Assembly (NCBI RefSeq): GCF_057098645.1
Contig: NZ_CM169472.1
Direction: 5' to 3' (one strand)
Length of the DNA stretch: 64,000 nucleotides
Positions 1,930-60,388 of this stretch are shown here, piece after piece. The notes below the pieces were generated by a model. That model saw only the letters and a program-made list of their open reading frames with translations. It did no database searches and was not told the origin of the DNA. The position numbers were made by a program, and so were the translations under genes. Every line of letters starts with the position of its first letter. The stretch's first letter is position 1.

Positions 1930-4818
<2,889 letters not shown>

Positions 4819-32962: not shown

Positions 32963-33127
32963 GCCTTATCTCCACCTCTTCGCGTCATTACGCGATATTC
33001 ATTAAAGTGGCGAAAGCATGACAGCAATCACAAAAAAATGAAAATAACAAAAAGAGAAAACACTTTTGCCATTTTGCTAACAAACAGGAAGGAGATGCGA
33101 GGGAGAACGCGCTCCCTCGAGAGGAAA

Positions 33128-33217
33128 TCAGTGCAGCGCGGCAGTCAAACCCACGGCTACGATCAAACCGAGGACGATAATCGTTGTTACCAGTGAAAAT
33201 TTAAGGTCGGTGCTCAT
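33128..33217 (-). CDS. ynhF: Small membrane protein YnhF (29 aa)
   Basis: Hand translation of the minus strand gives MSTDLKFSLVTTIIVLGLIVAVGLTAALH*; below the ORF-track cutoff. Confidence 0.75.
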   Translation of the reverse strand: MSTDLKFSLVTTIIVLGLIVAVGLTAALH

Positions 33218-33515
33218 CAAGTTTTCTCCTTTTTTATTACCACACAAAAAGTGATATTACGCATTTTTACACACTGTGATGAAAAAATCTCCCGTCATTT
33301 ATAATGATAAGTGTTTTTACCACTTCCCCTTTTCGTCAAGATCGGCCAAAATTCCACGCTTACACTATTTGCGTACTGGCCATTGACCCCTTCCTGACGC
33401 TCCGTGTCGTTTTTCCGGCGTACCGCAACACTTTTGTTGTGCGTAAGGTGTGTAAAGGCAAACGTTTACCTTGCGATTTTGCAGGAGCTGAAGTTAGGGT
33501 CTGGAGTGAAATGGA

Positions 33516-42106: not shown

Positions 42107-42183
42107 GCGTTCATAGCTCAGTTGGTTAGAGCACCACCTTGACATGGTGGGGGTCGTTGGTTCGAGTCCAATTGAACGCACCA
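42107..42183 (+). tRNA. valV: tRNA-Val (anticodon GAC)
   Basis: 77-nt cloverleaf including CCA; anticodon loop cttGACat. Confidence 0.93.
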
Positions 42184-42187
42184 TCCT

Positions 42188-42264
42188 GCGTCCGTAGCTC
42201 AGTTGGTTAGAGCACCACCTTGACATGGTGGGGGTCGGTGGTTCGAGTCCACTCGGACGCACCA
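42188..42264 (+). tRNA. valW: tRNA-Val (anticodon GAC), second copy
   Basis: 77 nt, 4-nt spacer after valV; differs from valV by compensatory changes in acceptor and T stems. Confidence 0.93.
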
Positions 42265-42371
42265 GATTTTCTTAATCTGGTCTTCTACTTTTTCCCTCTG
42301 CTTCTTCTCTGTATCCAATACGTTAAAAGATTTACACTGTCTTCGTATGCGTTATCAGAAGGAGAATCGCT

Positions 42372-42677
42372 ATGGCAACTTTGTTACAACTTCATTTTTC
42401 TTTCAATGGCCCATTTGGCGACGCAATGGCTGAGCAGCTTAAACCGCTTGCTGAGTCGATTAATCAGGAACCTGGTTTTCTGTGGAAGGTATGGACCGAA
42501 AGTGAAAAGAACCACGAAGCCGGTGGGATCTACCTTTTCACTGATGAAAAAAGCGCCCTTGCCTATCTGGAAAAACACACTGCCCGACTGAAAAATCTCG
42601 GCGTTGAGGAAGTTATCGCCAAAGTTTTCGATGTCAATGAGCCACTGAGTCAAATCAATCAGGCAAAACTCGCCTGA
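42372..42677 (+). CDS. ydhR: Putative monooxygenase-like small protein YdhR
   Basis: 101-aa ORF following valVW; hairpin plus T-run after its stop (42684..42705). Confidence 0.85.
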
Positions 42678-47399: not shown

Positions 47400-49247
<1,848 letters not shown>

Positions 49248-49287
49248 TTACTGATTTAGTGTATGATGGTGTTTTTGAGGTGCTCCA

Positions 49288-49563
49288 GTGGCTTCTGTTT
49301 CTATCAGCTGTCCCTCCTGTTCAGCTACTGACGGGGTGGTGCGTAACGGCAAAAGCACCGCCGGACATCAGCGCTATCTCTGCTCTCACTGCCGTAAAAC
49401 ATGGCAACTGCAGTTCACTTACACCGCTTCTCAACCCGGTACGCACCAGAAAATCATTGATATGGCCATGAATGGCGTTGGATGCCGGGCAACCGCCCGC
49501 ATTATGGGCGTTGGCCTCAACACGATTTTCCGCCATTTAAAAAACTCAGGCCGCAGTCGGTAA
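49288..49563 (+). CDS. insA: IS1 InsA (transposition repressor / DNA-binding protein)
   Basis: 91-aa [27 protein letters not shown]... matches InsA. Confidence 0.93.
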
Positions 49564-49985
49564 CCTCGCGCATACAGCCGGGCAGTGACGTCATCGTCTG
49601 CGCGGAAATGGACGAACAGTGGGGATACGTCGGGGCTAAATCGCGCCAGCGCTGGCTGTTTTACGCGTATGACAGGCTCCGGAAGACGGTTGTTGCGCAC
49701 GTATTCGGTGAACGCACTATGGCGACGCTGGGGCGTCTTATGAGCCTGCTGTCACCCTTTGACGTGGTGATATGGATGACGGATGGCTGGCCGCTGTATG
49801 AATCCCGCCTGAAGGGAAAGCTGCACGTAATCAGCAAGCGATATACGCAGCGAATTGAGCGGCATAACCTGAATCTGAGGCAGCACCTGGCACGGCTGGG
49901 ACGGAAGTCGCTGTCGTTCTCAAAATCGGTGGAGCTGCATGACAAAGTCATCGGGCATTATCTGAACATAAAACACTATCAATAA
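49482..49985 (+). CDS. insB: IS1 InsB reading frame (expressed as InsAB' transposase by -1 frameshift)
   Basis: 167-aa ORF in the -1 frame overlapping insA; the A-run slippery site lies near 49535-49545. Confidence 0.9.
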
Positions 49986-50387
49986 GTTGGAGTCATTACC
50001 TACGCTGCTGACTCTGTCCCCAACACCAGATATTTTCCCTAACCCGATAGTGTATGAGAAAAGATTTAACGCCGATAAACTAATCCTTTATGGTTAGGAG
50101 AAAAAATAATGTGGTTATTCTGGGCTCTTAACATTGATCATTATCAATTAAAATTACAAAGCAAGAAATTATAAGTGAACTGATATTTATTATCATTTGA
50201 AATAAATTTAACTTAAGCGACAATTATTTGTGACGGTCATTGCAGAAAATAAAAATAATATTATCGCTATAAATTAAAATACATACCGAAATTCGTATAA
50301 TTTCAGCAGTTGTTATTTAGAATGATTAACTGGACCGCAACTGAAGCAAGAATATCAGGATGAAGCTTATCGCCTCATCCTGAATGG

Positions 50388-50597
50388 TCATTTTACCAGT
50401 GCGTTAATGACGGTTTCCATCGCCTGCTTTTCCAGCTCACTGCGCTGAATGCGTTTATTGGCTAATGCTGTACGTAATACGCCTGCGATAACAATATGCT
50501 TTGGTTCCTGCCCCAGATCGCGCATTTCCAGCACAACTTTACCGACAACTCTGCACATTTCTCGGTACAGTTCATCCTCTTTTGTCCGATTTCCCAT
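50388..50597 (-). CDS. fumD: Small protein YdhZ (FumD, fumarase D), 69 aa
   Basis: ORF MGNRTKEDELYREMCRVVGKV... in the position upstream of pykF. Confidence 0.8.
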   Translation of the reverse strand: MGNRTKEDELYREMCRVVGKVVLEMRDLGQEPKHIVIAGVLRTALANKRIQRSELEKQAMETVINALVK

Positions 50598-54328: not shown

Positions 54329-54745
54329 TTAGCTAAGTGCAGCGGCTTTGGCGCGAATTGCGCGAATCATCGCTTCCAGACCTTGTGAACGAGATGGGGT
54401 GAGATGTTGGGTGAGCGCCATTTTTTCAAACCACGGACGCACATCGAAATTGACAATATCCTGCGGCGTCATCTGATCGTAGAGAATAAATACGACCGCA
54501 ATAAGCCCTTTTACAATCGCCGCATCGCTGTCGCCTTGCAATTCAATAATTCCCTGCGCATTCTGGCGCATGACAATCCACACCTGACTCTGGCAACCCT
54601 GAATGCTATTTTGTGGGCTTCTGTCTTCGTCGCGTAATTCTGGCAGACGCTGGCCCAGCTCAATAATGTAGAGATATTTCTCTTCCCAGTTGGCGCAGCG
54701 TAAAAAATTACGCAGCAATTTTTCTTTATCCGGCAATAAAGCCAT
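54329..54745 (-). CDS. sufE: Cysteine desulfuration protein SufE
   Basis: 138 aa; last gene of sufABCDSE. Confidence 0.92.
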
Positions 54746-54757
54746 AGTGCCTCCCTG

Positions 54758-55978
54758 TTATCCCAGCAGACGGTGAATACGTTGCAGGCCGGTCACCAGA
54801 CGATCCACTTCTTCATGGGTGTTATACATGGCCAGCGACGCCCGACACATCGCAGGGACGTTGTAATAGGCCATTAATGGCATAGCGCAGTGATGTCCGG
54901 TACGCACAGCAATGCCGTAATTATCGAGAAAACTGCCAACATCATAGGCGTGGTGTTTACCGAGATTAAAAGCAATAACGCCAAGCCTGTTCTGCGGACC
55001 ATAGAGAGTGAGATCCGGTACAGATTCCAACTGTGATAGCGCGTAATGCATCAGATTCTGTTCATACTCGGCTATGTTATTAAGCCCCAGCGCCGAAACA
55101 TACTCCAGCGCCGCGCCAAGACCAATGATGCCCCCGGTATTGGGTGTACCGGCTTCAAACCGCCATGGTGCTTTGGTCCAGGTAGTGCCTTCACTCAGGC
55201 TGACGGTGGCCATCATAGAACCGCCCCCTTCCCACGGCGGCATCTCCTGCAACAAGGCTTCTTTCACATAAAGAATGCCAATTCCGGTGGGGCCATACAG
55301 TTTATGCCCGGAGAACACGTAAAAGTCGCAATCCAGCGCCCGAACATCCACCGGATGATGCATCACCGCCTGAGCGCCATCCACCAGCACTTTTGCGCCA
55401 TGCTGGTGCGCAAGCGTGATCATTTCCGCCAGCGGATTTTCTGTTCCCATCACGTTGGAGACATGAGTAATTGCCAGCAGGCGAGTTTTCTCATCGAACA
55501 GATTAGGCAGCGTCTCCAGTTGCAACGTACCGTCGGGGTTGAGCGGGATCACACGCAGCTCTGCGCCAACGCGTGCGCAAAGCATCTGCCAGGGAACAAT
55601 GTTAGCGTGGTGCTCCATCTGACTTATGATGATGTTATCGCCCGCCCGCACGTTGCTGTTGCCCCAGCTATTGGCGACCAGATTGATCCCTTCCGTCGTG
55701 CCGCGGACGAACACCAGCTCTTCCGCCGAACGGGCATTAATAAACAGCGATGCCCGCTTGCGCACGTTCTCCATTTTCTCGGTCGCCTGGGCGCTTAAGG
55801 TATGAATACCACGATGCACCGCCGCGTAGCCATGACGATAAAACTCGGCCTCGGCGTCAATCACCTGGCTCGGTTTCTGCGCACTGGCGGCGCTGTCGAG
55901 ATAAGCCAGCGGCAAACCGTTTACCTCACGCGAAAGCACCGGAAAGTCGGCCCGCACTTTGTCGACGGAAAAAGTCAT
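54758..55978 (-). CDS. sufS: Cysteine desulfurase SufS (PLP-dependent)
   Basis: 406 aa, class V aminotransferase-like; active-site Cys near C-terminus (RTGHHCA). Confidence 0.93.
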
Positions 55979-57246
55979 CTTGCACCTCCTGGCAGCCGTT
56001 GACCGATTCGGGCCAGCACCTGCTGTTTAAGCCCCTCATCACGCAGTGCTTCCGTCAGTTCGGCAGCAAAGGCGTAAATGATCATCTGCTGGGCATCCTG
56101 CTGATTGATCCCGCGCGAGCGCAGATAGAACATCTGTTCATCATCAATACGCCCCACCGTCGCGCCGTGGCTGCATTTCACATCATCTGCATAGATTTCC
56201 AGCTGCGGTTTCGTATCCACTTCCGCCAGTTTGCCCATCAGCAGATTATTGTTGGTCATCTGACCATCCGTTTTGATGGCGTGCTGCGCGACGTTGATCA
56301 AACCGTTAAATACCGCGCGGCCTTTGTCGCTGACGATAGTTTTGTGCAACTGTCGGCTGTTACAAAAACCTTTATTGTGTTCCAGCCAGGTACGGGTATC
56401 ACACACCTCGTTTTTCACCGGCATCGCCAGGCTATTGATCCGCAACATGCTGTTTTCGCCATTGAGTTGCGTACTGGTGTTGTGTCGTAACACTGCGCCA
56501 CCCAGCAGGAAACTGTGGCTAAATGCGGTGGCATCGTCAGCCAGCAACAAATCGTTATGGGCAAAGTGGTGACTGACCGGGTTTTCAAACGCCAGCTTGA
56601 TATGCTGCAAGTGGGCATTCGCTGCGACGTTGATAGTGAACCGTGCCCCGGTAAAATGACGAGCATCATTAAGGCTGACAAAATGTTCGATCACCGTTGC
56701 TTCGGCACCTTCCGCCAGATCCAGATGATGTCGGTAATGGGCAGTGTTCACCTCTTCACCTGCCACGCCCTGGGTGATATGCATTAACAGCAATGGCTTT
56801 GCCGGCCGTTGACCGCGCTTCACGGCGATATGCGTCACGCTTTGTGCCAGGCTTTCCGTCAAATGCAGAAACACTTCCGCCTGAATAGCATCGGGTAACC
56901 CCTGACGGTCGTCGTTAATGCTCACTTCATACCCGCTGCCTTCAGTCGCATCGCTCAGCGCAGGCACGTAACGTCCATCGACAAACACCAGCCGCACGGC
57001 GTCTAACGTTAACGCTAAGGCATCTCGCTGCTGTGGGGATATCTCTCCCGCAATGCTGACAAACTGACTATTGGTCAGCCCTTCCAGCGGCGTATATTTC
57101 CAGTTTTCATGTTTACGTGTCGGCAGTCCGGTACGCAGCAATTGTTGTAAATGCTGTTGTGCTTGCGGGGAACGTTTCACCCCTTCAGCTTCAAACAAAT
57201 GATGCCACTGTTGCAGTGCGTTACTGCTGTTCGGTAAGCCAGCCAT
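55975..57246 (-). CDS. sufD: Fe-S cluster assembly protein SufD
   Basis: 423 aa; overlaps sufS by 4 nt and sufC by 26 nt. Confidence 0.92.
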
Positions 57247-57967
57247 AACCCTGCTCCTCCAGTTGTTTGACCAACGTGAAATCGCCGGATTTCACAATTC
57301 GTCCCTGATATAGCACATGGACGTAATCAGGCTTGATGTAGTCGAGAATGCGTTGGTAGTGCGTAACAATGATGAATGAGCGCTTGCCGTCACGCAGCGA
57401 GTTCACGCCATCGGCAACCACTTTTAATGCGTCAATATCCAGCCCGGAGTCCGATTCATCAAGAATGCATAACCCCGGTTCCAGCACCGCCATTTGCAAA
57501 ATATCGTTGCGCTTTTTCTCGCCGCCGGAAAAACCAACGTTTACCGAACGGGTTAATAAATCTTCCGGCATCTTCAGGAGAGCGATTTTCTCTTCCATCA
57601 AATCCTGAAAATCAAAGCGGTCGAGCGTTTCCTGGCCGCGATAGCTGCGCACCGCATTAAGTGCCGTTTGCAGGAAAAACTGGTTACTGACACCTGGAAT
57701 CTCCACCGGATACTGGAAGGCCATAAAGATGCCTTCGCCTGCACGATCTTCCGGCGACAGCGCAAGCAAATCTTTGCCTTTGAACTCAACCGTGCCGCCC
57801 GTCACTTCATAATCTTCGCGCCCGGCAAGCGTTGCCGATAAGGTACTTTTGCCCGAACCGTTTGGCCCCATAATGGCGTGAACTTCGCCGGGACGAACGT
57901 CGAGGCTTAATCCGCGCAGAATAGCTTTATCTTCCACGCTGACGTGTAAACCTTTAATACTTAACAT
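57221..57967 (-). CDS. sufC: Fe-S cluster assembly ATPase SufC (ABC-type)
   Basis: 248 aa; Walker A GPNGSGKST and ABC signature. Confidence 0.94.
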   Translation of the reverse strand: MLSIKGLHVSVEDKAILRGLSLDVRPGEVHAIMGPNGSGKSTLSATLAGREDYEVTGGTVEFKGKDLLALSPEDRAGEGIFMAFQYPVEIPGVSNQFFLQTALNAVRSYRGQETLDRFDFQDLMEEKIALLKMPEDLLTRSVNVGFSGGEKKRNDILQMAVLEPGLCILDESDSGLDIDALKVVADGVNSLRDGKRSFIIVTHYQRILDYIKPDYVHVLYQGRIVKSGDFTLVKQLEEQGYGWLTEQQ

Positions 57968-57976
57968 GTTTATTCC

Positions 57977-59464
57977 TTATCCGACGCTGTGTTCAAGACT
58001 GATGGCGAGGAGTTTTTGTGCTTCAACGGCAAATTCCAGCGGCAGTTCCGAGAACACGTCTTTGCAGAAACCGTTAACAATCATCGAGATGGCGTCTTCT
58101 TCGCTGATCCCGCGCTGCAGGCAGTAAAACAGTTGATCTTCACCAATACGTGATGTTGTTGCCTCGTGCTCCAGTTGTGCGCTGTTATTGCGACATTCGA
58201 CATACGGGAAGGTATGCGCCCCACAATTAGCGCCAATCAGCATTGAGTCGCACTGAGTGAAATTGCGCGCATTGGTTGCCGTCGGCATGATTTTCACTAA
58301 GCCGCGATAACTGTTCTGACTATGTCCGGCAGAGATCCCTTTCGAGATAATGGTCGATTTGGTGTTTTTACCGATGTGGATCATCTTGGTGCCGGTATCC
58401 GCTTGCTGATGACCGCTGGTCAACGCCACTGAGTAAAACTCACCAATGGAGTTATCGCCGCGCAGAATGCAGCTGGGATATTTCCACGTAATCGCGGATC
58501 CGGTTTCTGATTGCGTCCATGACATTTTGCTGTTTTCGCCTTCGCACAGAGCACGCTTGGTGACGAAGTTGAGAATACCGCCGGTGTTGTTATCGCCAGG
58601 GAACCAGTTTTGTACCGTGGAATATTTCACCTCGGCGTTTTTATGGATGATGACTTCCACCACTGCCGCGTGTAACTGATAGCTGTCACGCACCGGAGCG
58701 GAACAGCCTTCAATGTAGCTGACGTAGCTGTCTTCGTCGGCCACCAGAATGGTGCGCTCAAACTGCCCGGTTTTTTCCGCGTTAATGCGAAAATAGGTGG
58801 AAAGTTCCATCGGGCAGCGCACGCCTTTAGGCACATAAATAAACGTACCGTCAGAGGCTACCGCCGCATTAAGCGCGGCAAAGAAGTTGTCATTCCCCGG
58901 CACCACGGTGCCGAGATATTTACGCACCAGTTCCGGGTGATCGTGGATCGCCTCACCAAAGGAACAGAAAATAATTCCCTGCTCCGCCAGTTTTTCGCGA
59001 TAAGTAGTGGCAACCGAAACTGAGTCGAAAATGGCATCCACCGCCACCTCTTTGCCTTCCCGCACGGGAACGCCCAACTGCTCAAACGCCGCCTCCACCT
59101 CTTTACTTAAAAAGGCGTTCGCGCCAGTTTGCTGCACCGCGCCAGGTTCAGACGCGCAAGTGTCGTCACAATTACCGCACGATGGTGCCGAGTAGTAGCT
59201 GTAATCCTGATAATTCAGCTTGTCGTAGTGCGCTTTCAACCAGTGCGGTTCTTCCATCTCCAGCCATGCGCGATAGGCGTTTAGACGAAACTCCAGCATC
59301 CACTCCGGCTCATTACGCTTCGCCGAAATTGCGCGCACCACCTCTTCGTTTATCCCCTTTGCCAGCTCATCGGTGGCTAACTGGGTGAAGAATCCTTCTT
59401 TATAATTCAGCGGGCCGCCGGTCCAGGTTTTGACATCGTCAGTTGCTTCAGTATTACGAGACAT
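57977..59464 (-). CDS. sufB: Fe-S cluster assembly scaffold SufB
   Basis: Start taken at [10 protein letters not shown] (ATG 59462-59464), giving 495 aa; the track ORF is extended 13 codons upstream. Confidence 0.93.
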
Positions 59465-59472
59465 AGTACCGC

Positions 59473-59841
59473 CTATACCCCAAAGCTTTCGCCACAGCCA
59501 CATTCATTCTGGGCTTTAGGGTTGTGAAATTTGAATATCTGATTAAGTCCTTCACGAACGAAATCGACTTCCGTGCCATCAATAAACGGCATCGCTTGCA
59601 GCGGGACAAACAGCTTCGCGCCGTCGTGTTCAAACAGCAGATCGTCTTTGTCCGGCTCGCTAACACTGTCGAGCACATAGCCAAAGCCCGCGCAGCCCGT
59701 TTGCTTCACACCTAAGCGCACGCCGACCATACCTGGCTGCTTTGCCACCAGCTCGCGGATGTGTATCGCCGCTGCGGGTGTCAGCGTTAAGCCTTGCCAG
59801 GCGAAATCCTGTGGGTTAAAGGTTCCTGAATGCATGTCCAT
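59473..59841 (-). CDS. sufA: Fe-S cluster A-type carrier SufA
   Basis: 122 aa, C-terminal CGCGESF motif. Confidence 0.93.
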
Positions 59842-60130: not shown

Positions 60131-60215
60131 AACCCTTAAGTCTGTGCGACACAGGCTTAAGGGTTTCTACCCCATCCGGCGCTTATCTCCGGCACTCTCA
60201 GTGGCTTAGCTCTTG
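60131..60215 (-). ncRNA. rydB: Candidate small RNA RydB (sufA-ydiH intergenic); boundaries approximate
   Basis: Minus-strand hairpin (60140..60176) followed by a U-rich tract; position matches where I recall rydB lying in K-12. Sequence identity not verified. Confidence 0.3.
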
Positions 60216-60388
60216 AAGGGGCGATAAGAATAATCTCATAAAGCTAACCCGCCGTTTTAACACAAACTGCGATTAGTATTATTTTTGAACAATATCAGGC
60301 GGGTAGATAAGCAGTATTAAGAAGGTCATCGAACCTGGACGGAGGTTAATCCAGGTCGATTTGGCGAACTTGCGGCATTAAGTCAGGA

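Follow-up and report, generated by a model that had tools for sequence, protein, structure and literature searches.

How is sufD translated when its start codon and Shine-Dalgarno (SD) sequence lie inside the coding sequence of sufC, and does this arrangement tie the output of the two genes together? A first-pass annotation of the locus read the overlaps of sufC with sufD and of sufD with sufS as signs of tight translational coupling. We examined the reality of the overlaps, the constraint that they place on both reading frames, and what they may mean for initiation at sufD.

The suf operon and its gene junctions

The window, a stretch of 64,000 nucleotides, is E. coli chromosome, and the operon is sufABCDSE of the Enterobacterales type. 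All six genes, in the order sufA-B-C-D-S-E on the minus strand, match NCBIfam equivalog models end to end above the curated cut-offs. SufC, the 248-aa ABC-type ATPase of the SufBC2D scaffold (57221-57967), scored 536.6 bits against model NF007134 (cut-off 400; residues 1-248 of 248), and the 423-aa SufD (55975-57246) scored 799.8 bits against NF008194 (cut-off 489; residues 1-422). Upstream of them are sufA (59473-59841) and sufB (57977-59464; 495 aa from the RefSeq start), with gaps of 8 nt between sufA and sufB and 9 nt between sufB and sufC. Downstream are sufS (54758-55978), encoding a 406-aa cysteine desulfurase, and, after a gap of 12 nt, sufE (54329-54745). The RefSeq annotation of a strain identical over the suf stretch gives the same coordinates. 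The longest sufB open reading frame (508 aa), beginning at 59503 on the minus strand, would share 31 nt with sufA; the ATG at 59464, which is the start in RefSeq and in the NCBIfam model, leaves the 8-nt gap.

When 1.5 kb around the overlaps were compared with other genomes, 100 % identity was found with strain O145 RM9872, and of 5,418 further complete E. coli genomes nearly all matched at 95-99 % identity. Genes, order and junctions are the same as in E. coli K-12 (b1684-b1679; EcoCyc/RefSeq), from which the operon differs by strain-level substitutions only; its SufD shares 98 % identity with the K-12 SufD held in the PDB. Both overlaps are already known, since they are part of standard annotation and are listed as explicit rows in a 2023 survey (PMC10666635), whose E. 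coli supplement gives sufA-sufB as +8, sufB-sufC as +9, sufC-sufD as -26, sufD-sufS as -4 and sufS-sufE as +12.

The first-pass annotation had placed the sufC stop region 26 nt inside sufD and the sufD stop region 4 nt inside sufS, and both placements were borne out by open reading frame coordinates and by RefSeq. The sufC stop codon TAA is at 57223-57221 and the sufD ATG at 57246-57244 on the minus strand, so that the genes share 26 nt (ATGGCTGGCTTACCGAACAGCAGTAA; 57221-57246). At the second junction the sufD stop TGA (55977-55975) and the sufS ATG (55978-55976) share the four bases ATGA (55975-55978). Among the eight same-strand overlaps in the window, that of sufC and sufD is the longest, the others being 1 to 8 nt.

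Several other features were observed in the window. About 767 nt (49234-50000) do not align to RM9872 and match IS1 (IS1A-family transposase) beside ydhV/ydhY. Over this interval RM9872 is longer than the window by about 217 nt, and it appears that in the source strain part of the ydhY region has given way to an IS1 copy. At about 50389-50597, by coordinate transfer from RM9872, lies fumD, which is a frameshifted pseudogene in the annotation of the near-identical RefSeq strain. The small RNA rydB (Rfam RF00118, 81.6 bits; 60162-60222, minus strand) was found upstream of the suf promoter region, flanked by ydiH and sufA. Two further Rfam matches on the minus strand are the small RNA STnc550 (396 bits; 33125-33515) and HPnc0260 (108.7 bits; 42226-42388), the latter beginning antisense to the second gene of a tandem tRNA pair (42107-42261; tRNA-Val in RM9872) and extending downstream. 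Staggered BLAST self-matches in rsxC revealed an internal array of ~96-nt repeats with 86-92 % identity at about 4146-4771 (plus strand).

The sufD start and the dual-coding stretch

The sufD frame is shifted by one base from the sufC frame, and the overlap has length 3n+2 (26 = 3x8+2). It encodes SufC residues 241-248 (Y-G-W-L-T-E-Q-Q and the stop) and SufD residues 1-9 (M-A-G-L-P-N-S-S-N). An SD sequence for sufD, GGAGGAG (57254-57260, minus strand), lies 7 nt upstream of the ATG, within SufC codons L236-E237-E238, and its anti-SD duplex energy (-9.3 kcal/mol) is stronger than that of sufC (-6.2 kcal/mol) and also than that of sufB. Both start signals are thus carried by the conserved SufC C-terminal motif L-E-E-(Q/K)-G-Y-G-W: the L-E-E codons CTG GAG GAG give the SD sequence, and tAT-Ggc gives the sufD ATG. 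SufD accordingly starts M-(A/V/D)-G, since the SufC motif supplies the ATG and the wobble base of SufC Gly242 sets residue 2; the SufD cluster representatives nearest to E. coli begin in this manner.

For conservation analysis, 80 further Enterobacteriaceae genomes with SufD 74-98 % identical were used, giving 81 loci and 78 distinct aligned sequences. The position aligned to the sufD start is ATG in all 81 loci, and ATG together with the 26-nt overlap is found in 80 of them, the sole exception (L033) having a premature stop in the sufC frame. The SD sequence GGAGGAG is invariant in 78/78 sequences, and the 26 nt of the overlap vary hardly at all among them.

Long overlaps in general are often annotation errors, and in this strain in-frame TTG and GTG codons are present at sufD codons 17 and 23. 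It could accordingly be supposed that sufD is mis-annotated, that its true start is downstream (TTG codon 17, GTG codon 23 or Met36) and that the overlap is not real. We regard such a mis-annotation as effectively excluded. TTG17 occurs in 7/78 and GTG23 in 3/78 distinct sequences, and none of the alternative starts considered (TTG17, GTG23, Met36 and an upstream GTG at codon -13) is conserved. A downstream sufD start is ruled out by the conservation of SufD residues 10-19, by codon-3 periodicity that sets in directly behind the sufC stop in the sufD frame, and by the lack of conservation of TTG17 and GTG23. In the cell-free INRI-seq data (PMC9825163) the annotated sufD site is detected by the authors' own criterion, and the start-site tables consulted from that study list no alternative sufD start. 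PDB chains 2zu0, 5awf and 1vh4 are the same 423-residue SufD. With regard to N-terminal evidence, the consulted part of the TRAINSPOTTER N-terminomics supplement lists sufS and has neither sufD nor sufC, and a literature search returned nothing specific on the SufD N-terminus, the SufBC2D preprint containing no mass or N-terminal data. A different sufD start, backed by N-terminal proteomics, had been named as the finding that would refute the overlap; no conserved candidate emerged in the 81 loci.

The most direct evidence for dual coding comes from synonymous sites. In the 78 sequences, the mean entropy at third positions of degenerate sufC codons is 0.17 bits in the eight overlap codons and 1.07 bits elsewhere, and in the three codons that spell the SD sequence (CTG GAG GAG) it is 0.03 bits. 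Compared with all eight-codon windows of sufC, the last one has the lowest entropy (1st of 241; Mann-Whitney p = 2e-5). The sufD third positions show 0.00 bits in the overlap against 1.19 bits. Individual codons follow the same pattern. Tyr241, which gives the AT of the ATG, is TAT in 78/78 sequences, whereas the other seven sufC Tyr codons all mix TAT and TAC; Gly242, inside the overlap, is GGC in 78/78, whereas every other sufC Gly codon is polymorphic. As a control, the third position of Gly240, in the spacer two bases before the ATG, is free (T20/A10/C44/G4). The near-frozen synonymous sites of sufC, which are frozen exactly across the overlap, show dual-frame constraint and support the annotated sufD start. 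The first-pass annotation had held that the overlap constrains both frames at once and had proposed codon-level conservation analysis as the way to check it; once run, this analysis upholds the claim.

Within E. coli, the 40 nt comprising the SD sequence and the overlap are identical in 5388 of 5426 genomes, with the control stretches upstream and downstream identical in 5245 and 1102, respectively. Such within-species polymorphism barely discriminates, as sufC is conserved throughout. For a co-directional overlap with real dual coding one looks for conserved proteins in both frames and a conserved downstream start, and all of these were found here. The dual-coding stretch is real and selectively maintained, not an annotation error, and the annotated sufD start is confirmed.

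The AlphaFold model of SufD has pLDDT <50 for residues 1-5 and a first helix at residues 9-20, and in that of SufC the codons of the SD sequence fall within the last long helix (231-239), which is followed by a short tail. Judging from these models, the overlap would sit in low-cost parts of both proteins, namely the C-terminal 8 residues of SufC and, in SufD, a tail (residues 1-8) that is predicted to be disordered.

Inside the overlap the 4-nt unit GGCT occurs twice in tandem (57237-57244, minus strand); if one of the two units is lost, sufC and sufD become one continuous reading frame. One database protein (P0002, 662 aa) reads ...LEEQGYG and then SufD, which matches a deletion of one GGCT unit exactly. 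We considered whether the SufC-SufD fusions (P0002, P0003, P0006 and P0008) and the SufD-SufS fusions (P0014, P0023 and P0095) are natural fusions or frameshift products, and rejected both ideas, as each occurs only once and small indels account for all of them. Errors of assembly or rare mutants are the probable source.

The overlap in relatives

SufD relatives with 39-53 % identity have the ATG at the same position. Four of their loci (L082, L084, L085 and L086) show an overlap of 26 nt, and it measures 29 nt in L083 and 32 nt in L087; SufC residues E237, G240 and Y241 are invariant across the loci. In a Psychromonas-type locus (L089; 2486-2511; GCA_000153405.2) the gene caller uses a second ATG, which gives an overlap of 11 nt. 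A conserved in-frame ATG five codons upstream (M-A-G-L-L-M...) gives 26 nt, and the sufD start in that record is likely a mis-call.

In more distant suf operons the spacing between sufC and sufD is -4, +8, +14 and -4. In the PMC10666635 survey, pairs of SufC followed by a gene of the SufB/D family have a median spacing of +2.6, with quartiles of -4 and +18.3 (n = 1139). As far as the sequences compared indicate, the -26 form is specific to the gammaproteobacterial sufABCDSE lineage but old within it.

This distribution bears on the view that there is no functional coupling and that sufD simply uses its own SD sequence and AUG, the overlap being a frozen by-product of the SufC motif followed by a short dispensable SufC tail. 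The variation in spacing among distant junctions (-4 to +14) and in the 1139-pair survey indicates that no particular spacing is needed for SUF function, and the two protein termini encoded by the overlap appear to be under weak constraint at long evolutionary distance. The motif E-x-(Q/K)-G-Y is also present in a SufC whose sufD starts elsewhere (L088), and the sufD SD duplex is, as noted, stronger than that of sufC or sufB. Persistence of the arrangement down to 39 % SufD identity speaks against this view, as do a predicted structure at the sufD site and an in vitro initiation about ten times lower than at sufC or sufS when the site is isolated (see below). We consider complete independence possible but doubtful.

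With more than 6 nt and a length of 3n+2, the sufC/sufD overlap belongs to the long phase-1 class, and this phase predominates among long co-directional overlaps (PMC3887535; PMC10666635). Other conserved long overlaps include the type VI secretion pair VasA (COG3519)/COG3520 (median -37) and LptC/LptA (-14) (PMC10666635). The sufC/sufD pair differs from other long phase-1 overlaps in that both start signals come from a conserved motif of the upstream protein. Whereas suspicion of mis-annotation falls on many long overlaps, this one is backed by conservation.

Initiation at sufD and its relation to sufC translation

The first-pass annotation had also inferred that the overlap implies tight coupling and fixes the stoichiometry of the SufBCD complex. 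Neither claim found support at sufC/sufD, where we saw no sequence sign of coupling and where the literature on spacing opposes it at about -25 nt. According to a 2025 review (PMC12548453), coupling drops faster with a longer overlap than with a longer gap, and the systematic series of Tian and Salis shows no coupling at -25 nt. Huber et al. reported that only spacings of -8 to +10 nt are predictive of termination-reinitiation and that about +20 nt nearly abolishes it (PMC10666635). Moreover, the physiological complex is SufB1C2D1 (PMC6006206), and a 1:1 ratio, as a hand-over between sufC and sufD would produce, is not the one needed. Our literature search found no published test of coupling at suf junctions.

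Tight termination-reinitiation at sufC/sufD would require the ribosome at the sufC UAA to move back 23 nt to the SD-guided sufD AUG, yielding a fixed ratio. The two genes do encode partners of one complex ('CMPLX yes' in PMC10666635, where overlapping pairs are enriched for such partners), sufD has a strong conserved SD sequence upstream, and its isolated start is weak in vitro. Set against the published spacing series, the narrow predictive range and the C:D ratio of 2:1 that SufBC2D requires, these points leave such a hand-over quite unlikely.

The second junction differs. By sequence, sufD/sufS is of the NTGA (-4) type and sufC/sufD is not. The ATGA is present by frame in 77 of the 81 loci, its four bases are invariant in 78/78 aligned sequences, and an SD sequence for sufS, AGGAGG (55985-55990, minus strand), lies within the SufD codons P-G-G with a duplex energy of -11.6 kcal/mol. 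The pair thus shares the ATGA geometry and an upstream SD sequence, both conserved, with the NTGA pairs for which termination-reinitiation has been described (Huber et al. 2019, 2023). It differs from stoichiometric NTGA pairs in that SufD and SufS are not subunits of one complex ('CMPLX not', PMC10666635), and the likeness is one of geometry.

Data on initiation strength are available from INRI-seq (PMC9825163), a single, noisy high-throughput cell-free data set obtained with fragments from -30 to +153 behind an artificial leader. There the annotated sufD start gave 0, 0, 6.1, 0 and 9.9 CPM in five replicates, compared with 41-67 CPM for sufC and 55-70 CPM for sufS, at a pool transcript abundance comparable to that of sufD. 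The annotated sufB start gave zero in all five replicates, although sufB has no overlap with a neighbour.

When RNA structure was predicted over positions -18 to +12, the median opening energy was 14.1 kcal/mol for sufD against 5.7 kcal/mol for sufC, and sufD was higher in 77/77 loci. The value for sufS (14.5 kcal/mol) is at the same level. The high opening energy of sufD is therefore not evidence of selection, because it is expected for any start embedded in coding sequence. A predicted hairpin pairs the sufD AUG region with the sufC UAA region (57220-57249, minus strand; -11.9 kcal/mol), and the evidence for it is weak: its z-score is -1.85, 10 of 200 shuffled sequences fold as well, and one pair is kept in only 24/83 sequences, with no covariation support. 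In distant loci that retain the overlap this hairpin is not kept and the folds differ. We thus rejected it as a conserved element and treat it as a weak hypothesis only.

The reading that we favour, at somewhat better than even confidence, is that sufD initiates at its own internal SD sequence and AUG with the aid of ribosomes that finish sufC and unfold the site, and that sufD/sufS has canonical ATGA geometry. Ribosomes would initiate sufD internally, with no return over 23 nt from the sufC stop. As naked mRNA the sufD start site would be structured and weak, and for this reason ribosomes finishing sufC probably assist by opening it; sufD output would in this way be linked to the translation of sufC, though not at 1:1. 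For sufS, the ATGA and the strong SD sequence may offer the standard geometry for termination-reinitiation after sufD. The classical model of coupling by RNA unfolding (PMC12548453) has a start inside the upstream open reading frame that is structured and weak when isolated; the sufD start lies inside sufC and, by prediction and the cell-free data, may share the other two traits, its predicted structure lacking covariation support.

Some dependence of sufD on sufC translation through unfolding is thus plausible. Counting against it are the marginal hairpin, the noise of the INRI-seq data and the zero signal of sufB in the same data. The strong SD sequence of sufD could also support adequate independent initiation in vivo.

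A more ambitious reading is that the SufC motif has been kept across the gammaproteobacterial lineage as a protein-encoded ribosome-binding site for sufD, and that the start/stop hairpin ties sufD initiation to ribosomes finishing sufC at -26, where ordinary reinitiation fails. The overlap would then be a dedicated device that sets C:D near 2:1, which we hold to be unlikely. In the opposite direction, ribosomes in the last 40 nt of sufC may cover the sufD SD sequence and AUG, limiting sufD and helping to set the 2:1 ratio. The geometry permits such interference, as the SD sequence and AUG lie 23-39 nt before the sufC stop. It is also compatible with the required C:D ratio of 2:1 (PMC6006206) and with a Salmonella Ribo-seq preprint, which attributes the proportions of SufBCD mainly to translation efficiency and does not address the overlap. 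We nevertheless judge it very unlikely, given that the predicted and cell-free weakness of the naked site suggests that upstream ribosomes help rather than hinder.

If coupling at -26 nt should prove true, sufC/sufD would provide a natural exception to the rule that coupling is lost in long overlaps. What is added here to the known overlaps is the confirmation of the sufD start, the quantified dual-frame constraint and the SufC motif that encodes the sufD ribosome-binding site; this is a tidy detail and no new kind of system, and beyond housekeeping the finding matters little. As it stands, sufC/sufD is a clean textbook example of an upstream protein whose conserved peptide motif provides the start signals of the next gene. 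Editing of the last 40 nt of sufC hits the ribosome-binding site and the N-terminus of sufD, which matters whenever sufC or sufD is to be deleted, tagged or recoded.
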